64,000 nucleotides of DNA, from the sequence record PP464953.1; one strand, given 5' to 3'. Positions 1 to 14,560 of this stretch are shown piece by piece. The notes beneath the pieces were generated by a model. The model was not told the origin of the DNA. It ran no database searches and saw only the letters and a list, made by a program, of their open reading frames with translations. Position numbers and translations under genes: made by a program. This stretch comes from Escherichia phage ECP2309. Position 1 is the first letter of the stretch; every line of letters starts with the position of its first letter.

Positions 1-433
1 GGCGGACGAAATGGGAATACTTCTCATTCTTATAACAATTCTCAAATATCAAGGCAGTGAGGCAAATTAATAGGTGAGGCCGTTCACACAGTGGCACAAC
101 ATTTGCAACCTATCTTGTGTGGAGGAATGAGAATACCTATCATTGTGAGAACCATTATCATTACGGGCAATTTAACATAATACCCATTATGCGCACCACT
201 GGCGATACATACAGGGATTGATAACATGAGTTACTGTTTACGCATATAACAATTATATTTCTTACTATTTGTGTGGGATATAGTTAGCAACCAATAGATT
301 AGATATTGACCTGCAGACTTCTGACCGTCCAGACGTCTAAACGCCCACACACCAAGGGTTATACATACATTCCTGAATGTAAACAGGGCCGCAAAAATGC
401 TACCATACCAGTTTGTAAATTTTTCATGCAGCA

Positions 434-550
434 CTTGACAAAGAGGAGAAAAACTTGTCTGACACTTTTGCCACTTTTGACACTTTTACCTTTGACACAA
501 TGTCACACAATATGCCATAATCTGACACCTTATACACTTTCGACACAATA
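434..550. repeat. cluster of TGACAC(TTTT) direct repeats
   Basis: TTGACA/TGACAC copies at ~436, 460, 477, 492, 523, 542 and inverted TGTCAC at ~501; no ORF of 60 aa or more is credible here. Confidence 0.6.
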
Positions 551-585
551 ACGACTGTTATTATTTCATGTTTCATTGTTCACGT

Positions 586-645
586 ATAGACTATTCCCGC
601 ATAGACTGTTTACGCCTGGATAGTTTACACCTTGACAGTTTACAC
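586..645. repeat. tandem ~15-bp direct repeats with core GTTTAC
   Basis: atagactgtttacgcc / tagtttacacc / cagtttacac read directly; further copies near 235, 1047, 1091 and inverted near 379. Confidence 0.6.
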
Positions 646-657
646 AAAGATGATAAG

Positions 658-896
658 CCATGACATTCGTTTGCATGATAACAATTAACAAGTTAATAAT
701 ATATGACATAATATAAAAGCAGGGCAACTATTAGCAGATCTATAGTTGCCTTGCTTGTTATGTCATGATTAACTAAATACAAGGCAACTATGATCTGATT
801 AATAGATTGCAGACAAACTATCACGGGGGTGATTGTTACTGCTTTTATATTATGTCGCGACTCCGTCGCGCCATGCCATTCGTTTGCATAGTTGCC
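658..896. repeat. nested direct/inverted repeat block
   Basis: ccatgNcattcgtttgcat at 658-676 and 871-889; 16-bp inverted repeat gacataatataaaagc (705-720) / gcttttatattatgtc (841-856); GGCAACTAT at 723-731 and 783-791 with inverted ATAGTTGCC at 742-750 and 888-896. Confidence 0.65.
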
Positions 897-1500
897 TTAT
901 TGTTACAGGTAAAACAATTACATTGTTAACTATTTCTTATCTTTCTCTTAGTCATCTAATGATTCCAGTCAGTATAGTTATGTGCAGTAAACATTAGACG
1001 ACTAAAGATTTCTCTGATTATAGTAACCTATCGTGACAATTTAGGACTGTTTACGAAAAATGTTGACACTTGAGCTGATTTATGTTATGCAGTTTACACG
1101 AATAATTATTTTATGCAGGTATTGACTATTCCGTTATTCTGTGGTTGGAATAAATACTTTGCAGGCTATAGAATGATGTGCGTACGTGAATTCTGAGATC
1201 TGGCGGCTATAGTTACACCCGATTTTTCACGTAGGACACGCTTTTGTGGTTGTGTAAGTGTATGACTTATAAGGGTTTTTAATTGTTGACAGTATACTGA
1301 AGATGTGTATCAGGTTAAATTTTGTGCAATAGTTGCATTACGTGCATTTTTGGAAGGAAAAACGTGTAAAAATGGCCCTGCTACCACACAATGAAAGATT
1401 ATGCAATAGTTATTTTCCATGTATATTTGTACAGTATGTGGGATTGATGGCTAGTCAATTATTCCACTTGCCAGGTAGGGCCGTTTATGGTAGGAGAAGA

Positions 1501-1533
1501 GCAGACAAAAAGAAAGGGGCCTTTAAGCCCCTT
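1501..1533 (-). terminator. rho-independent terminator closing the early array
   Basis: stem AAGGGGC/GCCCCTT followed on the minus strand by TCTTTTTGTCT; 20 nt downstream of the stop at 1552. Confidence 0.6.
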
Positions 1534-1551
1534 GATAATTCAGTTAAGAAA

Positions 1552-1971
1552 TTATAATGATTCGTATATTTCAAAAATCCGATTTGCCAGGTCGTTACGG
1601 TAGCGGAATTTTTCCTCACGTTTGATCATAAGATCTTTATAGCCGTACTCTTTAAGCACTTCATTAACTTTATGGCGGCATACTTTCATATTATCCTGCG
1701 CGTCACCAATAAATCTGTTGCTATGGTGCATGGCTTTAATTTCTTCTTCCAGGACCAGGGCAACTATGCGGACCGGATCAAGCTGATAGGCGGTAACATC
1801 CATGCGGCATTGTAAACGGCTTTTTACGTCTGCCACCGGATATACTGCAACCTCTTCCCCGTCAACATTGACAATAATTAGTTTACCATCGATTTCGAAT
1901 CCTTTCGCCGCCGGACCGTGACAAAAAGCGTTATCAAAGCTATATGCCGGATTATTAGATTTAATGTTCAT
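1552..1971 (-). CDS. hypothetical early protein
   Basis: track ORF 139 aa; ATG preceded by AAGAGGT. Confidence 0.6.
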   Translation of the reverse strand: MNIKSNNPAYSFDNAFCHGPAAKGFEIDGKLIIVNVDGEEVAVYPVADVKSRLQCRMDVTAYQLDPVRIVALVLEEEIKAMHHSNRFIGDAQDNMKVCRHKVNEVLKEYGYKDLMIKREEKFRYRNDLANRIFEIYESL

Positions 1972-2115
1972 GGTGTTTTTACCTCTTAGTTAATTTTCTT
2001 ACAACTTCCCTTCAAAAAAGAATATAGCAAAACTGCCGATCCCTGTCAACCAGGGATAGCATAATTTTTATGTGATCAAGGGGCTTTATTGCCCCTGACC
2101 ATGTAACTTGTTGTA

Positions 2116-2379
2116 TTATTTGTTGCTCATCCAGTTTTCCCAAGCTGCCTGATAATCTGCCTCACTACGGCGGATCTCTTCTTGCTCTTCAAGGCGGATC
2201 TCTTCTTCCAGGTACCCCAAGATGTCAGCCTTTTTAGTCTGGCGTAGCATCCAGTCATCTTTTTTGCGAGTGAAGATCTTATAAGCTTTCTCGCAAACCT
2301 CTTTTTTGCTACCTTTCTGGACTTCAAGAACACGATAAGCCATATATTGAACTAATTTGAGCTGATCAAGACGTTTCAT
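2116..2379 (-). CDS. hypothetical early protein
   Basis: track ORF 87 aa; SD AAAGAGGT; own promoter and hairpin upstream. Confidence 0.6.
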   Translation of the reverse strand: MKRLDQLKLVQYMAYRVLEVQKGSKKEVCEKAYKIFTRKKDDWMLRQTKKADILGYLEEEIRLEEQEEIRRSEADYQAAWENWMSNK

Positions 2380-2433
2380 GATGTTTACCTCTTTGTGCGG
2401 TTCTGATTAGTGGGCCTTTTGGCCCGTGTCATT

Positions 2434-2462
2434 ATCTTATTACTTATGGCGGCAGAATTCAA
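2434..2462 (-). promoter_or_regulatory. sigma70-like promoter TTGAAT-N17-TAAGAT
   Basis: read on minus strand; followed by hairpin GGGCC-TTTT-GGCCC (2412-2425) and SD before ATG at 2379. Confidence 0.5.
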
Positions 2463-2712
2463 GCGTTTTTAATTGATAATCTTCCTCAGCCTGGAGTACG
2501 ACCGCCTCGATCATTTCGTTGGCATTGTTAAAGCCATAACCTTTAGCGAACTCATCCGCGCCACCTTCGTGATCATGTTCTGCGTTCATCGCTTCCACAA
2601 AATGGAATTCCAAATTGTTGAGGTAGGGGCTTGATGTTCCGTCCTCTTTTTCGATGAGATCCCAAATAGCATTAAAACGTGATTCGACTTCTTGATTAAT
2701 CCAGCTTGACAT
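2440..2712 (-). CDS. hypothetical early protein
   Basis: track ORF 90 aa; SD AGGAGAGAGG. Confidence 0.6.
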   Translation of the reverse strand: MSSWINQEVESRFNAIWDLIEKEDGTSSPYLNNLEFHFVEAMNAEHDHEGGADEFAKGYGFNNANEMIEAVVLQAEEDYQLKTLEFCRHK

Positions 2713-2766
2713 AGTGTTTTCCTCTCTCCTGGTTGTTGTGTGGGCACTTTTGCCCCTTCAAGATAA

Positions 2767-2795
2767 ATGTTACCTCACCCCATGGCAGATGTCAA
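2767..2795 (-). promoter_or_regulatory. sigma70-like promoter TTGACA-N17-TAACAT
   Basis: followed by hairpin GGGCA..TGCCC (2742-2756) then SD and ATG at 2712. Confidence 0.55.
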
Positions 2796-2826
2796 CGGTT
2801 TTTATAGTTCTTATATGACAGGCAGG

Positions 2827-2845
2827 CCCGGTGATTGTCTCCCCC
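2827..2845 (-). repeat. GGGAGACAAYCACCGGG motif copy
   Basis: reverse complement of the motif found on the plus strand at 12451-12468 and 12585-12603. Confidence 0.5.
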
Positions 2846-2929
2846 TGTTCCCAAGTGCCGCCCGTTTAATAAGAATAGCAAAAGGGGCCGAACAAGTCAA
2901 CCCCAAAATCAGTACCAAAACACTTTTAT

Positions 2930-3241
2930 TTATACGGTCCGATCATTGGCCTTTGTCCAGGACCTGGCGATCCGTTTCCCGGTCACCTGGAACGGAGGCT
3001 GCATTGTGTGTAATGAGTCCAGAGTAAGGGAGGACCGTTTACGGCGTATCTTCAGGATCGCTAACGTATTGTCCATCTCACGGCCAGGTCCTGGGCGGTA
3101 TGGTGTGCCTCCAGCGTTAAGGTTGATGATCTCATGTATTGAGATCCGGCGTTGTTTTGCTTCCGCATCTTTGAAGATAGCCAGCGGAGGCGCTATGCGT
3201 TGCCGATACCAATCTAAAACGGTTGGCGTAATAGCGATCAT
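2930..3241 (-). CDS. hypothetical protein
   Basis: track ORF 103 aa; start overlaps upstream stop (ATGA). Confidence 0.5.
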   Translation of the reverse strand: MIAITPTVLDWYRQRIAPPLAIFKDAEAKQRRISIHEIINLNAGGTPYRPGPGREMDNTLAILKIRRKRSSLTLDSLHTMQPPFQVTGKRIARSWTKANDRTV

Positions 3242-3429
3242 ATTTTACCCCCTATGTAGTCCGGTCGGTTTTTCTCTGTCATACGCTTAAGCAATTCTTG
3301 CATGTTGCTTATGGCTTGTAGTGTATCCTCTTCAAGGGATGAATCAAGATAATCAGGATCATTCTTCACCTTGCAATGATTATGATAACGCAGTACCGCC
3401 AGTACTTTTTTAACTTCTTCCGCTGTCAT
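3238..3429 (-). CDS. hypothetical protein
   Basis: track ORF 63 aa; weak SD. Confidence 0.45.
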   Translation of the reverse strand: MTAEEVKKVLAVLRYHNHCKVKNDPDYLDSSLEEDTLQAISNMQELLKRMTEKNRPDYIGGKI

Positions 3430-7165: not shown

Positions 7166-7537
7166 TTATTTAAACGGTTGGCCCACATATTTTCTATTCC
7201 TCTCAAATAAGCGATCCGCCTCAGTTAAACAAATCTCATGGGCGTGATCTCTGGTTTTAGCTTCATCGAAAACCTGTTGTGCAAGGCTGCAACGTAGGGA
7301 GACTGGGAGATCACTATAATAGGCGTTGACAAACGTTTGAGCGTCGTACAGGTCTGAAAATACTTTACCCTTTCTATTATTCCCCTTGTCAACAATTGCA
7401 AGGATAACCAATACAATAGTTGCAACCACCCCCAGGAAAATAGATATAATAAACCATAAAAAGGCGGATCTCCCCATCTTGCCAGCGATCCAGGCGTTAA
7501 ACAAGGCAACCAATATAGCCAAAATAATAAATTCCAT
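7166..7537 (-). CDS. membrane protein (two predicted TM helices)
   Basis: track ORF trimmed to M12 with SD AAGAGGT; hydrophobic stretches FIILAILVALF and WFIISIFLGVVATIVLVILAIV. Confidence 0.55.
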   Translation of the reverse strand: MEFIILAILVALFNAWIAGKMGRSAFLWFIISIFLGVVATIVLVILAIVDKGNNRKGKVFSDLYDAQTFVNAYYSDLPVSLRCSLAQQVFDEAKTRDHAHEICLTEADRLFERNRKYVGQPFK

Positions 7538-7601
7538 TCTATGTACCTCTTTTACAGTTCTGATCAACAATAAGGCGGCAAATATGCCGCCTGTTACCTG
7601 A

Positions 7602-10818: not shown

Positions 10819-11223
10819 TTAGTAAGTTTTCAGTACTTTACCGTCCAACCTGTCAAGCTGGATCTCGATAGCTGCAGAAAACCTATTGTACACCACGTCG
10901 CCCATAGAATCCAACCAATCTATGACGTTATACACCTGCTCTTTGTTCTTACAGGTCCGGATCCGTTTCATGATGTAAGCCGGATCAATATTGGTACTCT
11001 CGTCGGTGTTCCCCTGTACCTGGTTTGCCGTATTAGTTACATCTTTAATGGCCTTTACCACCACCTGGAAGGGCTTTAAGGTACCTTTTGCGTTCATCTC
11101 ACGCGCTTTTGCGGCGCGGTTGTTATATGTTACACAACGGCGGCAAATGTTGATCAAATGCATGTCAATAATTTTTTCATCGTTTGCCAGTTCATTCATG
11201 ATGCGGCGTACGTTCTTATTCAT
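10819..11223 (-). CDS. hypothetical early protein
   Basis: track ORF trimmed to ATG (M34); the extension runs through promoter, hairpin and the upstream gene. Confidence 0.6.
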   Translation of the reverse strand: MNKNVRRIMNELANDEKIIDMHLINICRRCVTYNNRAAKAREMNAKGTLKPFQVVVKAIKDVTNTANQVQGNTDESTNIDPAYIMKRIRTCKNKEQVYNVIDWLDSMGDVVYNRFSAAIEIQLDRLDGKVLKTY

Positions 11224-11272
11224 GATCTTTTTTCCTTTGTGTTGGCGGGAAACATTCCCGCCTTTTGTGCCC

Positions 11273-11300
11273 AGTTTACTTGAATTTTGCAGCGTGTCAA
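11273..11300 (-). promoter_or_regulatory. sigma70-like promoter TTGACA-N16-TAAACT
   Basis: followed by hairpin GGCGGGA..TCCCGCC (11244-11262). Confidence 0.6.
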
Positions 11301-11306
11301 CAATTT

Positions 11307-11705
11307 TTATTCGTGGGCGCATGTTACAATGTGCTTTTTATAGCCCAGGCGGTCAGCAAGTGCCGACAAAAACTCTTCTTCGTAGATCCAGCCGTCGGCA
11401 GTGATCCCCATAGCATTTAATGCGCTCTCAAGTGCTGCGTTGGCTTTATCATAACCGTGACCGCTCGCCTTGCCTCCAGTATAGCCGTACTTATTGTTCT
11501 TGTTGTCGTGTATCCAAAAAACGCAGTAGTGAGTGTTCCCGCTGGCGGCGGCATAATACCGGATCTCAGCTACTTCGTGCAAATTATTGTCATCGTCCAG
11601 GCCCACCAGATTATAAGCCTTGTAAAATCCACGATCACGGCGGCAGTTCTTGACATCAGAAAAAGAAAAGTCCGCATTATCAAAATTAAAGGTAGTGGTT
11701 TTCAT
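11307..11705 (-). CDS. hypothetical early protein
   Basis: track ORF 132 aa; SD AAGAGGA. Confidence 0.6.
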   Translation of the reverse strand: MKTTTFNFDNADFSFSDVKNCRRDRGFYKAYNLVGLDDDNNLHEVAEIRYYAAASGNTHYCVFWIHDNKNNKYGYTGGKASGHGYDKANAALESALNAMGITADGWIYEEEFLSALADRLGYKKHIVTCAHE

Positions 11706-11769
11706 GATTTTATCCTCTTAGTGTCTTTTGTGCTTTTAGTGTATTTGGTGTCGGACTGTATGTCAATAC

Positions 11770-11967
11770 TTATTTTTTATTAAACCAGTGGTTGATCTGG
11801 CCTTTTGTCAGGGCGCAACGATTAAGCTGTTGCCGAGTATAGCTCTGACCGCGACGGAATTTATAAAGGCCTTGCCCGTTGTTGATGGTTACATCCACCC
11901 GGCAAACCATTTGATCGGTGACCACCTGGCGAGTGTTGCGACGTACTTTGATTCCGTAGGCGTTCAT
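11770..11967 (-). CDS. small basic protein
   Basis: track ORF 65 aa; SD AGAGAGGA. Confidence 0.5.
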   Translation of the reverse strand: MNAYGIKVRRNTRQVVTDQMVCRVDVTINNGQGLYKFRRGQSYTRQQLNRCALTKGQINHWFNKK

Positions 11968-12020
11968 GATTTTTTATCCTCTCTGTTAATTGGTGTGGTG
12001 TTGTTCACCTTGCGAGGATA

Positions 12021-12049
12021 AGAATAACAATAACTGTACGAGCTGTCAA
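12021..12049 (-). promoter_or_regulatory. sigma70-like promoter TTGACA-N17-TATTCT
   Basis: read on minus strand upstream of ATG at 11967. Confidence 0.5.
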
Positions 12050-12386
12050 CCATTAGTTAGAATTATTTTTTTTGGGCAGAATTCTCCAGCCGCCGCCCCT
12101 ACCAGGTTAACCATCGTTTTTTCGTACTCTTCTTTATGTTCCAACGCTCCCGCCATAGCCTTTTCAACCAGGGCGATAGCCTCAGCGTCATTAATCGCTA
12201 CATTTCCAGGGGATCAAATTACCTTTCATTTTTGTACCTCCTCTTCAATTGTTACCTGCCCTATAGCATAGGCCTACCAGGTTTGCAAGCTTTCACTCTC
12301 TCCTACCTGGTCAGTCAGGTCCTGCCAGGTTGGCCCCGCCAGGTTGCAACGGTTAGCGCATCAGGTTAGAATTTTTTTGAAAAGTG

Positions 12387-12510
12387 TTGACAGCGGCCCC
12401 GCCAGGTGGCACAATATACCTATCGGAAGGACGGCAGGCACCGGTGACGGGGGAGACAACCACCGGGGATGGGCGCTGCATAAAATGAGAACGGTTATCA
12501 TTATCATTTA
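12387..12510 (+). other. structured non-coding unit A (candidate sRNA or regulatory element)
   Basis: starts with TTGACA; contains GGGAGACAACCACCGGGG and ends with near-palindrome GGTTATCATTATCATT. Confidence 0.4.
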
Positions 12511-12530
12511 AAAATTTATGCAAAAAATCC

Positions 12531-12640
12531 TTGCTTTCTTTGTCCTGTGTGATACTATAATAACAAGCCGGGGCAACAGGGGCCGGGAGACAATCACCGG
12601 GGGTGCCCGTTATTCTGCAAACGAGAATGATTATCATTCA
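12531..12640 (+). other. structured non-coding unit B, related to unit A
   Basis: TATAAT at 12556-12561; contains GGGAGACAATCACCGGGGG and near-palindrome AATGATTATCATTC. Confidence 0.4.
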
Positions 12641-12765
12641 AAATTCTAAATGAGAACTTTTCGCATTTCATAAATTTAGTTAGCATGCTAATTACCTACC
12701 GTGACAATTCTATATAAAATAATACCTCCTTAAATATTTCCATATACAAATTTTAAAAATCCATT

Positions 12766-12932
12766 TCCGAAAACGAAAAATCGATTTCGTCCCCAAAAAT
12801 TTCAGGTCGAGCTCCGGAACGATTTCCAGAAAATCTGATTCAGAAAACGAAAAACAGATCGAGTACTAAGAAATTTATCGAGAAAAATTTTCAGAAAATT
12901 CAATCTTTGAAACGAAAAACAGATCGAGTACT
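12766..12932. repeat. iteron-like direct repeats GAAAACGAAAAA(C/T)(A/C)GATCGAGTACT
   Basis: copies at 12769-12790, 12843-12867, 12909-12932 in AT-rich DNA with many shorter repeats. Confidence 0.6.
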
Positions 12933-13243
12933 GAGAGAGATGTATCAAAACCTACTGAGAATAATGGGCTTATTGTTATAAAAGGTCAAAGGTAAGCTGG
13001 GAAAGTTCTGGTAGAAGGGTGAGGGTATGTGCGGAAAATCTGGAATAGTAACTTAAAGTACGGTGCGAACGATAGAATGAGCAGCACATCTTATCGCGCC
13101 TGTCTTGAAAAATCCATTTTAGTTTTCGATCCATTTTCTGATTTTCTAAGAATTTTAAAATATCCGGCCAGGTAAAATATCAAAAGGAGGAAATCCATTT
13201 TAGAAATCCTCCTTATACTTGATGTGCCAGGGATTTTCAAGTA

Positions 13244-13573
13244 TCAACTGTCTTTGTTTTTAGGCTTGTGCATACGTAGAGGTATGGTCTTTATAACATT
13301 CCATCTACCCAACCCCTCCCAGTTCCAATTGTGAGCGTGATACCCGGTTATGCATGCACTGCTGGCGTGATCATAAGCATAAGAGAACGCTATGCGAACC
13401 AAGTGGGGCCAGTCCCTCCACGGCTGTGGACCGTAAGCCTTCCTCCAACACCGACACAAACTAATTGTCTCAAGAATAGGTAGAATAACAAATCCATATA
13501 CCGCCACCAAAATGGTCAGAGCAATGATTGTCAGGAATACATACCCTGCAGTTGAAATAATGATCTCTGTCAT
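13244..13573 (-). CDS. membrane protein
   Basis: track ORF 109 aa; hydrophobic N-terminus; SD AAAGGGGA. Confidence 0.5.
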   Translation of the reverse strand: MTEIIISTAGYVFLTIIALTILVAVYGFVILPILETISLCRCWRKAYGPQPWRDWPHLVRIAFSYAYDHASSACITGYHAHNWNWEGLGRWNVIKTIPLRMHKPKNKDS

Positions 13574-13767
13574 TTGTCATCCCCTTTCTTACGGATATAG
13601 ATGTGAGAGCCTGCTTGTACATAAATTTCCAGACCATCTTCTGCAAAGATGTGGAATACACGGTCGCCTTCGTATTCAATACGGGATATCTTCATAACGG
13701 TCTTCCCACCCGGAATGCGGATCTCATCACCCACAGCAATGTTCCATGCAGATTTAAGCTTAAACAT
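13570..13767 (-). CDS. hypothetical protein
   Basis: track ORF trimmed to ATG (M3) with SD AAAGGAGG. Confidence 0.5.
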   Translation of the reverse strand: MFKLKSAWNIAVGDEIRIPGGKTVMKISRIEYEGDRVFHIFAEDGLEIYVQAGSHIYIRKKGDDK

Positions 13768-14005
13768 CTGCACCCTCCTTTGGGAGCTCTAACTCTGGCA
13801 TAGCCATATACGCCACAACAGGGTTGTAATCAAAGTAGAAATGACCGTTAATTATCCCAGTTTTGTGGGCATAGTCACCAGATCCTGCAAGAACAATCTC
13901 GCAAACTCCGAAATCCACCTTGCCATTCTCATCTGCCATGGCTACAATATACTTTCCTAGAGGCATGTTTTTAACGCCGTCTACAAATGTCCACCCTTTG
14001 TTCAT
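13760..14005 (-). CDS. hypothetical protein
   Basis: track ORF 81 aa; SD AGGAGA. Confidence 0.55.
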   Translation of the reverse strand: MNKGWTFVDGVKNMPLGKYIVAMADENGKVDFGVCEIVLAGSGDYAHKTGIINGHFYFDYNPVVAYMAMPELELPKEGADV

Positions 14006-14025
14006 ACTTTATCTCCTGCACTTTC

Positions 14026-14358
14026 TTAAGGTAACCAGTAAACAATTTCGCCTTTCAGTTCCATGTCGTTACCGACATAGATTTTCCAGCCATCCATTTT
14101 AGCCACTGCAGGAGTGAAGTCCGTAGAACCACTAACCTCTTTCCAAGTCCCGTAGTCAGGTTGCCAGATATAGAATCCACCTTCCTTGTCCCATGCTCCA
14201 TATACCACATCGAGCAGGTTGCCCATTGCAACAATAGTAGGCCGTGGGAATAATACATCTACAGATGCGCCACAATTTCGGGTAGATTTTAAATTACAAT
14301 CCCAAAAGATGTCTGCCAGTGTGGCGGCGATAGCTTTACGTCTTTCTAATGTTACCAT
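14026..14358 (-). CDS. hypothetical protein
   Basis: track ORF 110 aa. Confidence 0.5.
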   Translation of the reverse strand: MVTLERRKAIAATLADIFWDCNLKSTRNCGASVDVLFPRPTIVAMGNLLDVVYGAWDKEGGFYIWQPDYGTWKEVSGSTDFTPAVAKMDGWKIYVGNDMELKGEIVYWLP

Positions 14359-14368
14359 GGTACGATAC

Positions 14369-14560
14369 TCACTTGTTGTTAAGAAGTTCTAAAACTTTCT
14401 GTTTTACTTTATCAAGGTCTGTTGATTCAAAAACTGTGCGATATCCCCAACTTTGCCCATAGGAATGACTGCAATCCCCGTAACACCATTGCTCAACTTG
14501 ATAGTATTCAAGGAATGGGTGCTGTCTAACTATGATGCCGTCTCGATTAAAAATTACCAT
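14369..14560 (-). CDS. hypothetical protein
   Basis: track ORF 63 aa. Confidence 0.45.
   Translation of the reverse strand: MVIFNRDGIIVRQHPFLEYYQVEQWCYGDCSHSYGQSWGYRTVFESTDLDKVKQKVLELLNNK

Follow-up and report, generated by a model that had tools for sequence, protein, structure and literature searches.

The primary origin of phage T7 consists of tandem promoters, φ1.1A and φ1.1B, followed by an AT-rich stretch, and oriF and oriG of phage T4 are R-loop origins. Iteron origins, such as λ ori, P1 oriR and that of pSC101, carry helically phased repeats of about 17 to 22 bp, along with a nearby gene for the cognate initiator and host DnaA/IHF sites. RyhB is a Fur-controlled small RNA, and the λ oop RNA adjoins ori. 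Fur boxes are known on temperate phages, at the stx1 promoter and at sitABCD on lambdoid phages (PMC6969025). PeSLs are composite promoter/terminator cassettes of T4-type phages (PMC2839356, PMC4122927). For phage rV5, the genome paper found that the origin was not definable from skew analysis and that the primase/helicase is related to those of Podoviridae (PMC3606486). We found nothing in the literature on Fur boxes, small RNAs or an origin in rV5-like phages. Here we describe an island at positions 11968 to 13243 of a 64,000-nucleotide (nt) stretch of Escherichia phage ECP2309 (PP464953.1), the whole of which is called the window below. The island contains a CCAGGT-rich part, two promoter-driven RNA-like units (U1 and U2), palindromic boxes, AT-rich DNA and three direct repeats (Table 1). 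Sequence comparison supports well that this region is functional non-coding DNA, that a new and widespread phage transcription unit, in the simplest view a small-RNA gene, is present in it twice, and that it carries operators that host Fur should bind.

The window is that of an rV5-like Vequintavirus. Its sequence agrees with that of Escherichia phage ECP2303 (PP261279.1) at 100% identity, and a threshold of 80% identity is reached by 121 phage records. In an alignment of 10 Vequintavirus genomes, from which all column identities within the genus were taken by block, the values were 90 to 99% at 12380 to 12709 (units and boxes), 94 to 100% at 12740 to 12889 (repeats) and 90 to 99% at 13100 to 13219. 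The flanking coding blocks had 71 to 98%, and the unit, box and repeat blocks are as high or higher. The initial annotation of this interval, which proposed a replication origin and/or small RNA genes, had named poor conservation among relatives, combined with mapping that shows neither a small RNA nor initiation, as grounds for giving up the proposal; the core is kept at 90 to 100% within the genus. Outside the genus, positions 12592 to 12667 are 80 to 89% identical in Seunavirus, Certrevirus, Mydovirus, Henunavirus and Phapecoctavirus (Stephanstirmvirinae), and the rest of the island is not alignable. Those genera share the order of the parts, namely + strand promoters, RNA-like units, palindromic boxes and AT-rich DNA with direct repeats. 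Some labels among the matching records call for caution. Sixteen "Campylobacter phage" records (e.g., MG065662) have 91 to 92.5% identity over the whole 2.2 kb, which casts doubt on their host label. In one relative, the match overlies an annotated "30S ribosomal protein S2", and ORFs (open reading frames) of about 95 amino acids (aa) near the island are labelled "DNA ligase" in relatives; both look like annotation errors.

Two related units with promoter-like hexamers at their start had been noticed before, and we recovered both, with starts 134 to 136 bp apart, behind the predicted promoters PU1 and PU2. A profile search with the unit core found exactly three copies in the 64 kb, U1, U2 and U3. 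A unit consists of a + strand promoter, a nearly invariant GAGACAAnCACCG 20 to 45 nt downstream, a variable pentamer, UG and a hairpin. The U1 core, GGGAGACAACCACCGGGG, lies at 12451 to 12471, and an outer stem, TGCATAAA/TTTATGCA, encloses Fur box 1. The U2 core spans 12585 to 12616, with the invariant GAGACAATCACCG at 12587 to 12599. Its 3′ hairpin pairs TTATTCT (12610 to 12616) with AGAATGA (12624 to 12630), and the 3′ arm lies inside the left half of Fur box 2. PU2 has 99% column identity in the genus, and a homologous promoter, cTTGMTy-16-TATTAT, is kept in all genera.

U3 stands upstream of the gene at 2440 to 2712(-), about 10 kb from the island and on the opposite strand, without an intact Fur box. 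Every Vequintavirus record has it, and copies of the U3 type are present in Seunavirus and Stephanstirmvirinae as well. In Certrevirus (P7_Pc and CR3), U3 is likewise about 10 kb from U2 on the other strand, and the P7_Pc copy also carries a Fur box. The -35 element of the U3 promoter (TTGACT-17-TATTCT) lies in a GGGG...CCCC hairpin, which is followed by a T-run that carries the -10 element. To judge from this arrangement, the U3 promoter is a composite terminator/promoter of the PeSL type. The likeness to PeSLs extends to the GC-rich inverted repeats and CCWGG sites around island promoters in relatives. However, PeSLs were described for T4-like and not rV5-like phages, they lack a conserved RNA core or Fur boxes downstream, and PU1 and PU2 are without a clear stem-loop.

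A metagenome scan found 18 loci with the unit, some of them from other phage lineages (L042, L048/L051). In every lineage, a + strand promoter stands ahead of each unit copy. The L048 unit has a TATAAT promoter, a 5′ hairpin, the motif in single-stranded form and a GCAUGU/ACAUGC hairpin followed by UUUU, which by its predicted features is a classical small-RNA shape. The 3′ hairpin is kept with at least five arm pairs: UYAUUCU/AGAAUGA, GUGUUAUU/AAUAACAU, GCAUGU/ACAUGC, GCUAU/AUAGC and UGCAUAAA/UUUAUGCA. In enterobacterial phages, the 3′ arm of this hairpin is the left half of the first Fur box. The G-U pairs of the proposed helices are compatible with the + strand alone. The earlier suggestion of small RNA genes has thus gained comparative support, in the form of predicted + strand sigma70 promoters of their own, an invariant core, the 3′ hairpin and recurrence in distant lineages. 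The covariation check proposed with it gave a divided answer: the 3′ hairpin is kept with five arm sequences, and the 5′ helices have no statistical support. The proposed Rfam scan matched no family. Rfam 15 gave no match at the gathering score across the whole window, and permissive searches returned nothing relevant at E ≤ 10 in 11000 to 14500, at E ≤ 5 in 1 to 3400 or at E ≤ 1 in three relatives. Like RyhB and the λ oop RNA, the units would give a short non-coding transcript from its own promoter, linked to Fur or next to a candidate origin. They differ from both in that no sequence similarity was found (no Rfam match and no E. coli match), in placing the Fur box at the 3′ end and not at the promoter, and in the lack of a U-tract in U1 and U2.

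Several other ideas about the units were tried and set aside. The conserved block has no match in 5,426 E. coli genomes, which speaks against a host origin. We considered a likeness to 4.5S/signal recognition particle (SRP) RNA, based on CCAGGUC...GGAAGG and the complementarity of the CCGGACCUG variant. The Rfam SRP models do not match, and the idea also fails on the pentamer, the most variable part of the core (GGGGG, GGGCC, GGACC, GAACC, GGAGC and GCCCC). The hand-drawn P1 and P2 helices are not claimed, given a weak RNAalifold consensus and a negative shuffled-flank test. When the core was scanned for duplexes over the two strands of the 64 kb, nothing emerged except the antisense strands of the units themselves, the best other duplex being within the range of shuffled seeds. 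A trans target of the unit RNA is a matter of speculation.

A second promoter-driven element, which we call RNA1, was seen in relatives. It is very conserved and lies just upstream of the U2 homologue in Seunavirus, Certrevirus, Mydovirus and Phapecoctavirus (L004 2310-2410, phage GAP31; also L003, L005, L010-L012, L016 and L020). Its sequence is ACAGAAGAGrAAACGCCACCCCACGGCGwAAAGGCGGGGCTAACGTACC...GGTCGGAAGGTGGATCGCCGGTAG, with no Rfam match. The 5′ end of U1 (ATCGGAAGGACGGCAGGCACCGGTGAC) resembles the 3′ end of RNA1. Certrevirus P7_Pc (L005 2300-2430) has an extra promoter-driven unit between RNA1 and the U2 homologue, with the same ATCGCCGGTAGCTCG tail as RNA1. RNA1 is not present in the window, where the best nhmmer match in the island has E = 4.9 at 12340 to 12301(-).

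The 3′ block that the units share is a 19-bp palindrome, AATGAGAATnATTCTCATT, whose 7-1-7 Fur form is TGATAATnATTATCA. This is the same palindrome as in the enterobacterial Fur operators of fepA-fes, fepD-entS and fepB-entC. Against AATGATAATnATTATCATT, the box at 12484 matches at 15/18 positions, its partner at 12490 at 15/18, the box at 12620 at 16/18 and the box at 12649 at 13/18; native E. coli sites match at 13 to 15. The classical 19-mer consensus, GATAATGATAATCATTATC, is matched at 16/19 positions at 12487(-). We built a matrix from the phage boxes alone (22 boxes, taken from nine phages) and ran it over 49 kb of E. coli K-12. The six best matches all fell between the genes of the pairs fepA-fes, fepD-entS and fepB-entC, in regions that account for 1.5% of that sequence, and the textbook Fur palindrome scores 31.2 bits with the same matrix. 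Within the 64 kb, boxes that reach 17 bits are confined to the island and to 10 to 162, both non-coding regions.

Each locus has one to four palindromic boxes, which in all genera are exactly 29 bp apart with variable spacers. The two halves of a box do not compensate as an RNA stem would, and the combination GAGAAT...ATTATC is common; this fits a dimeric DNA-binding protein. A phage-encoded Fur was rejected, since tblastn with the E. coli protein as query gave no homologue among the rV5-like phages. Because the phage has no Fur homologue, host Fur-Fe2+ is the predicted binder. The boxes sit at about +54 to +81 from the predicted PU1 and PU2 starts, and box 1 ends 28 bp upstream of the PU2 -35 element. 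In contrast to known Fur operators, these belong to a virulent phage, lie downstream of promoters with a fixed 29-bp spacing, and stand beside non-coding RNA units and repeats and not ahead of an iron-uptake or toxin gene. The initial annotation had overlooked that the shared 3′ block corresponds to host Fur boxes, that the opposite strand carries a third copy of the unit at a distance of 10 kb, and that the CCAGGT part is poorly kept.

Right of the boxes lies the AT-rich part, for which iteron-like repeats had been claimed. We located three such repeats and, next to them, the AT maximum of the window. A GATC is present in both of the well-matched copies, and the first copy is degenerate. Three repeats are also present in Seunavirus, Mydovirus, Certrevirus and Henunavirus, making five Vequintavirinae genera in all, with spacings of 63 to 69 and 74 to 78 bp. 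The 3′ core of the repeat is the same across the three copies of one genome and differs between genera: GATCGAGTACT in the window, GATCGAGAACC in Seunavirus and Mydovirus, GATCGAGACCC in Certrevirus and CTCAAGTC in Henunavirus. Such concerted change is expected for sites of a phage-specific binding protein, whereas the constancy of the Fur boxes across genera is expected for sites of a conserved host protein. A further copy of the AAATCCATTT(T) motif of the right-hand conserved block (Table 1) is found at 12757, and its reverse complement, AAAATGGATTT, recurs right of the repeats in Seunavirus GAP31. Another motif, TTTGAGATAA(T), resembles an extended -10 element (TGnGATAAT) and occurs two to three times right of the repeats in relatives (L004 2930-2975, L003 2925-2965 and L012 at about 1880-1990); its sole counterpart in the window is TGAGAATAAT at about 12955.

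With respect to an origin, PU1 and PU2 read into 12665 to 12764, no conserved + strand ORF lies downstream, and the three concertedly changing repeats follow. Three direct repeats beside an AT-rich segment (12756 to 12936 beside 12665 to 12764) reach the minimum of at least three used to recognise an iteron origin. The GATC in two of the three repeats and the concerted core also recall iteron origins. The units of the island are longer, however, at about 60 bp with a spacing of 63 to 78 bp, and the island has no DnaA enrichment, IHF consensus or adjacent Rep-like gene. With the T7 and T4 origins the island shares tandem promoters whose predicted untranslated transcripts enter the AT-richest DNA, and the phage has a podovirus-type primase/helicase. 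It differs from them in using host sigma70 promoters and in having Fur boxes and three long direct repeats between or after these promoters. Origin function fits this layout and is possible, but we regard it as speculative and would sooner doubt it than assume it.

Table 1. Positions of predicted and observed features of the island and of related elements elsewhere in the window
Feature	Position	Strand	Remarks
Promoter-like site TTGCAA-17-TAGAAT, upstream of PU1	12344..12372	+	
PU1, predicted promoter of unit 1: TTGACA-17-CACAAT, extended -10 TG	12387..12415	+	94% column identity in genus
U1, candidate small RNA	12422..12520	+	nhmmer E = 6.8e-5; 94-99% column identity in genus
PU2, predicted promoter of unit 2: TTGCTT, then TACTAT at 16 bp or TATAAT at 19 bp	12531..12561	+	
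U2, candidate small RNA	12565..12640	+	nhmmer E = 4.5e-10
U3, third core copy (2844-2813), outside island	2790..2912	-	nhmmer E = 1.9e-8
Fur box 1, two overlapping 19-mers 6 bp apart: AATGAGAACGGTTATCATT, AACGGTTATCATTATCATT	12484..12508		28.2 and 13.2 bits (phage-box matrix)
Fur box 2, AACGAGAATGATTATCATT	12620..12638		27.4 bits
Fur box 3, AATGAGAACTTTTCGCATT	12649..12667		23.4 bits
Second strong Fur-box cluster (at 10, 126, 144), outside island	10..162		Large non-coding region at window start
AT-richest 100 bp of 64 kb, 77% AT	12665..12764		Candidate DNA-unwinding element
Three iteron-like direct repeats, ~60 bp	12756-12802, 12817-12876, 12882-12936		3′ core GAAAAACAGATCGAGTACT
Variable spacer	12942..13100		66-78% column identity in genus (blocks 12920-13099)
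Conserved block	13105..13206		Motif AAATCCATTT(T) at 13110, 13130 (GATCCATTTT), 13191; 90-99% column identity
CCAGGT/CCWGG cluster	12272..12407		Inverted repeat ACCAGGT (12276-12282)/ACCTGGT (12304-12310), TTGCAA in loop
Frameshifted small-gene remnant	12046..12235	-	Intact form matches phrog_21957, 58-60 aa
Sigma70 promoter TTGACA-17-TATTCT with TG (predicted)	12021..12049	-	Homologous site annotated P195B in rV5; left island border
Terminator-like hairpin AAGGAGGA...UCCUCCUU then UUGAUAUUUU	13174..13214	-	-21.8 kcal/mol, z = -3.3; right island border

The genes annotated around the island are all on the minus strand. At its right border, the minus-strand hairpin has a U-rich tail, lies just past the stop codon of the gene at 13244 to 13573 and looks like the terminator of that upstream gene. 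At its left border, the minus-strand promoter is predicted to restart leftward transcription for the gene at 11770 to 11967. Together these two elements bracket the island, and leftward transcription is therefore predicted to skip it. In rV5, the counterpart of the interval is annotated with four small "hypothetical" ORFs, two minus-strand promoters and one terminator feature. Apart from a NADAR domain in one relative, Pfam and PHROGs searches with the neighbouring proteins gave nothing but families of unknown function, and ARAGORN detected neither tRNA nor tmRNA. A small + strand ORF (L004 2069-2260, L012 1073-1258 and L003 2075-2341) stands at the start of the island in Seunavirus, Mydovirus and Phapecoctavirus, the sole + strand gene in a minus-strand array. 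It belongs to DUF7170/phrog_4653 in Seunavirus and Mydovirus and to phrog_19316 in Phapecoctavirus, and it has no counterpart in the window.

The interval had been called gene-free. This holds insofar as no conserved ORF fills it, but it has to be qualified for a gene remnant and a short annotated ORF. The remnant at 12046 to 12235(-) has a strong ribosome-binding site and an ATG at 12235, followed by a stop after 12 codons, and the remainder is in another frame. The corresponding gene is intact in 3 of 10 genus members (L023, L027 and L021); the other seven, the window among them, have it in broken form. The annotated 35-aa ORF at 13091 to 13198(-) has its ATG inside the loop of the minus-strand terminator-like hairpin, and its C terminus is frameshifted among relatives. 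The larger ORF at 12353 to 12637(-), which is rV5 ORF198, had been judged not protein-like, and the relatives agree: it has stops in L021, a frameshift in L024 and variable C termini elsewhere. We do not consider it a gene, because it is antisense to the two conserved promoter-driven units and broken in relatives.

The six CCAGGT copies reported for the left part of the island are there, five on the + strand and one on the - strand within 12102 to 12407, with another at 13168. The whole 64 kb contains 53 copies, so about 0.25 would be expected per 306 bp (Poisson P of about 3e-7). The inverted repeat at 12276 to 12310, which has TTGCAA in its loop, lacks a -10 element and folds with z = -0.3. 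This part (12260 to 12379) is among the weakest-kept stretches of the island, with 79 to 85% column identity and deletions in L024 and L025. CCWGG density is 9 to 14 per kb in the homologous islands of six of the eight loci examined, versus 2 to 4 per kb outside, and these sites lie mostly within promoter spacers or GC-rich inverted repeats around -35 elements. We read the CCAGGT cluster as variable, decayed promoter and stem-loop cassettes, that is, as debris. It may include an inverted remnant of the RNA1 unit of relatives, to which the match mentioned above is a faint pointer.

A second and larger gene-free region lies at 1 to 1550 of the window, cut by its left edge. It is homologous to rV5 104014-106617 (L029), where the region measures 2.6 kb. 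It holds repeats of its own, TTTGACAC five times at 465 to 545, AGTTTACAC four times at 605 to 650 and GGCAACTAT-type copies at 720 to 830. The last resemble a motif of L046, a Vequintavirus-like metagenomic contig of 130 kb, in which about nine TTATAGTTAC/AACTATAAATA copies stand at the Fur-box position (7300 to 7600 of the reverse complement).

The reading of the island that we favour, tentatively and with somewhat less than even confidence, is a composite one: a non-coding control island with Fur-gated small-RNA units and a transcription-activated origin. Taken more broadly, the island is probably not junk but a region of iron-gated control or of replication initiation. The composite reading starts from the promoters, the conservation, the copy number, the identity of the Fur boxes and the concerted repeat change, all as they appear in the sequence. 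The island would be set apart from the surrounding leftward early transcription. PU1 and PU2 would drive rightward RNAs of about 55 to 110 nt, with GAGACAAnCACCG at about +20 to +45 and a hairpin end, and U1, U2 and U3 would belong to a family of phage small-RNA genes not described before. In each unit, the 3′ hairpin would run into near-consensus Fur operators, where host Fur-Fe2+ at +54 to +81 would act as a roadblock or gate that sets the RNA 3′ end and limits read-through. Transcription, Fur binding and the roadblock effect are what we infer here. Bound Fur may also shield the adjoining AT-rich DNA. Read-through would enter the AT-richest 100 bp and the three repeats, which would be bound by a phage-specific protein. 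The origin would then be activated by transcription, either in the manner of T7, with tandem promoters followed by AT-rich DNA, or in that of T4 oriF and oriG, and its firing would be tied to host iron status. A stronger version, which we consider distinctly unlikely, is that virulent phages of two subfamilies have built host Fur into a non-coding module. An iron-dependent roadblock would pick between the short RNA and origin-firing read-through, and the replicating boxes, in their hundreds, would titrate Fur and induce host iron uptake.

A number of observations weigh against the composite reading. The Fur boxes lie downstream of the promoters, whereas such boxes usually overlap the -35 and -10 elements of the promoter that they control. 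The close relative L046 has a different repeat motif in place of Fur boxes, and U3 of the window has no box; the link between the RNA and Fur is therefore not obligatory. Neither U1 nor U2 has a U-tract terminator, a feature seen only in the distant homologue L048/L051. RNAalifold on a MAFFT alignment gave a weak consensus with a weak 3′ hairpin, single-fold z-scores were modest (-0.4 to -3.6), and the motif was as unpaired in the units as in shuffled-flank controls (0.74 versus 0.73). Some variants, such as L038, break the proposed outer helix. On the side of the origin, DnaA boxes number 4 versus 3.6 expected, which is no enrichment, an IHF consensus site is lacking, and no initiator gene is recognisable next to the island. 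GC and AT skew give no clean origin signal, only a small step of the wrong sign at 12 to 13 kb. No AT-rich repeat array of this kind comes after U3 or after the L042 and L048 units, and the RNA unit would therefore have a role independent of any origin. As to the skew itself, GC skew goes from about -0.03 (8 to 12 kb) to about -0.13 (13 to 22 kb) and AT skew from about -0.19 to about -0.05. The shift falls at the island with gene orientation unchanged, and, being opposite in sign to what an origin would give, it may reflect gene content only.

Several of these observations would suit a simpler arrangement, in which the island holds only small-RNA genes under Fur control. U1 and U2 would then be iron-dependent trans-acting or decoy RNAs, and the AT-rich repeats would be curved DNA, operators of a phage regulator or an H-NS target counteracted by Fur, and not an origin. 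The occurrence of the unit without the repeat array at U3 and in other lineages, the standalone small-RNA shape of L048 with its terminator, and the missing DnaA, IHF, skew and initiator-gene signals all speak for it. Yet the 64 kb yielded no complementary target other than the antisense strands of the units themselves, and this arrangement leaves unexplained why the concerted repeats and the AT maximum always follow the unit in Vequintavirinae. We rate it as rather unlikely, while taking it seriously. A different question is whether host Fur is involved at all. A phage initiator or repressor that recognises a Fur-like palindrome might bind the boxes instead, since Fur sites typically form arrays that overlap at 6 bp and these are spaced at exactly 29 bp, the array is placed beside AT-rich DNA as initiator sites would be, and L046 has another motif at the same position. 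However, the boxes are constant across genera in which the iteron cores have diverged, which points to a conserved host factor. Their agreement with the Fur consensus also equals or exceeds that of native sites, the blind scan picks out Fur-regulated regions, and box 1 has the typical 6-bp overlapping pair. A phage binder thus seems quite improbable to us.

Two further alternatives were weighed. The island could be a graveyard of mobile PeSL-like promoter/terminator cassettes and decayed small genes in a hyperplastic early region, conserved by kinship alone. The pseudogene remnant and broken ORFs, the variable CCAGGT part with its indels, and the U3 promoter, a composite terminator/promoter like the PeSLs of T4-type phages, are what one would expect of such a place. 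Against this, the core is more conserved than the neighbouring genes and persists across subfamilies and in unrelated metagenomic phages in which the surroundings are not alignable, and we give the idea very little credence. Small ORFs are annotated in rV5 and some relatives, and the ORF at 12353 to 12637(-) and others could in principle encode proteins. Besides the stops, frameshift and variable C termini of that ORF, conservation across genera tracks the + strand promoters and the box palindromes and not a reading frame, which makes a coding role barely credible. These last two alternatives, together with explanations not thought of, share the small part of our belief that is not assigned elsewhere.

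The rV5-like and phi92-like phages are widely used candidates for therapy and biocontrol, and the island is a concrete, mutable candidate for an origin and for early regulation in them. The units make up a candidate RNA family that lies outside Rfam and reaches beyond both of these groups. If the composite reading is true, a strictly lytic phage would seem to use the host's own repressor to sense the iron status of the cell, and boxes that titrate Fur would amount to a Fur titration assay in nature. Gut and infected tissue, the settings in which these phages would be applied, offer iron in limiting supply, and the link could therefore affect their performance.

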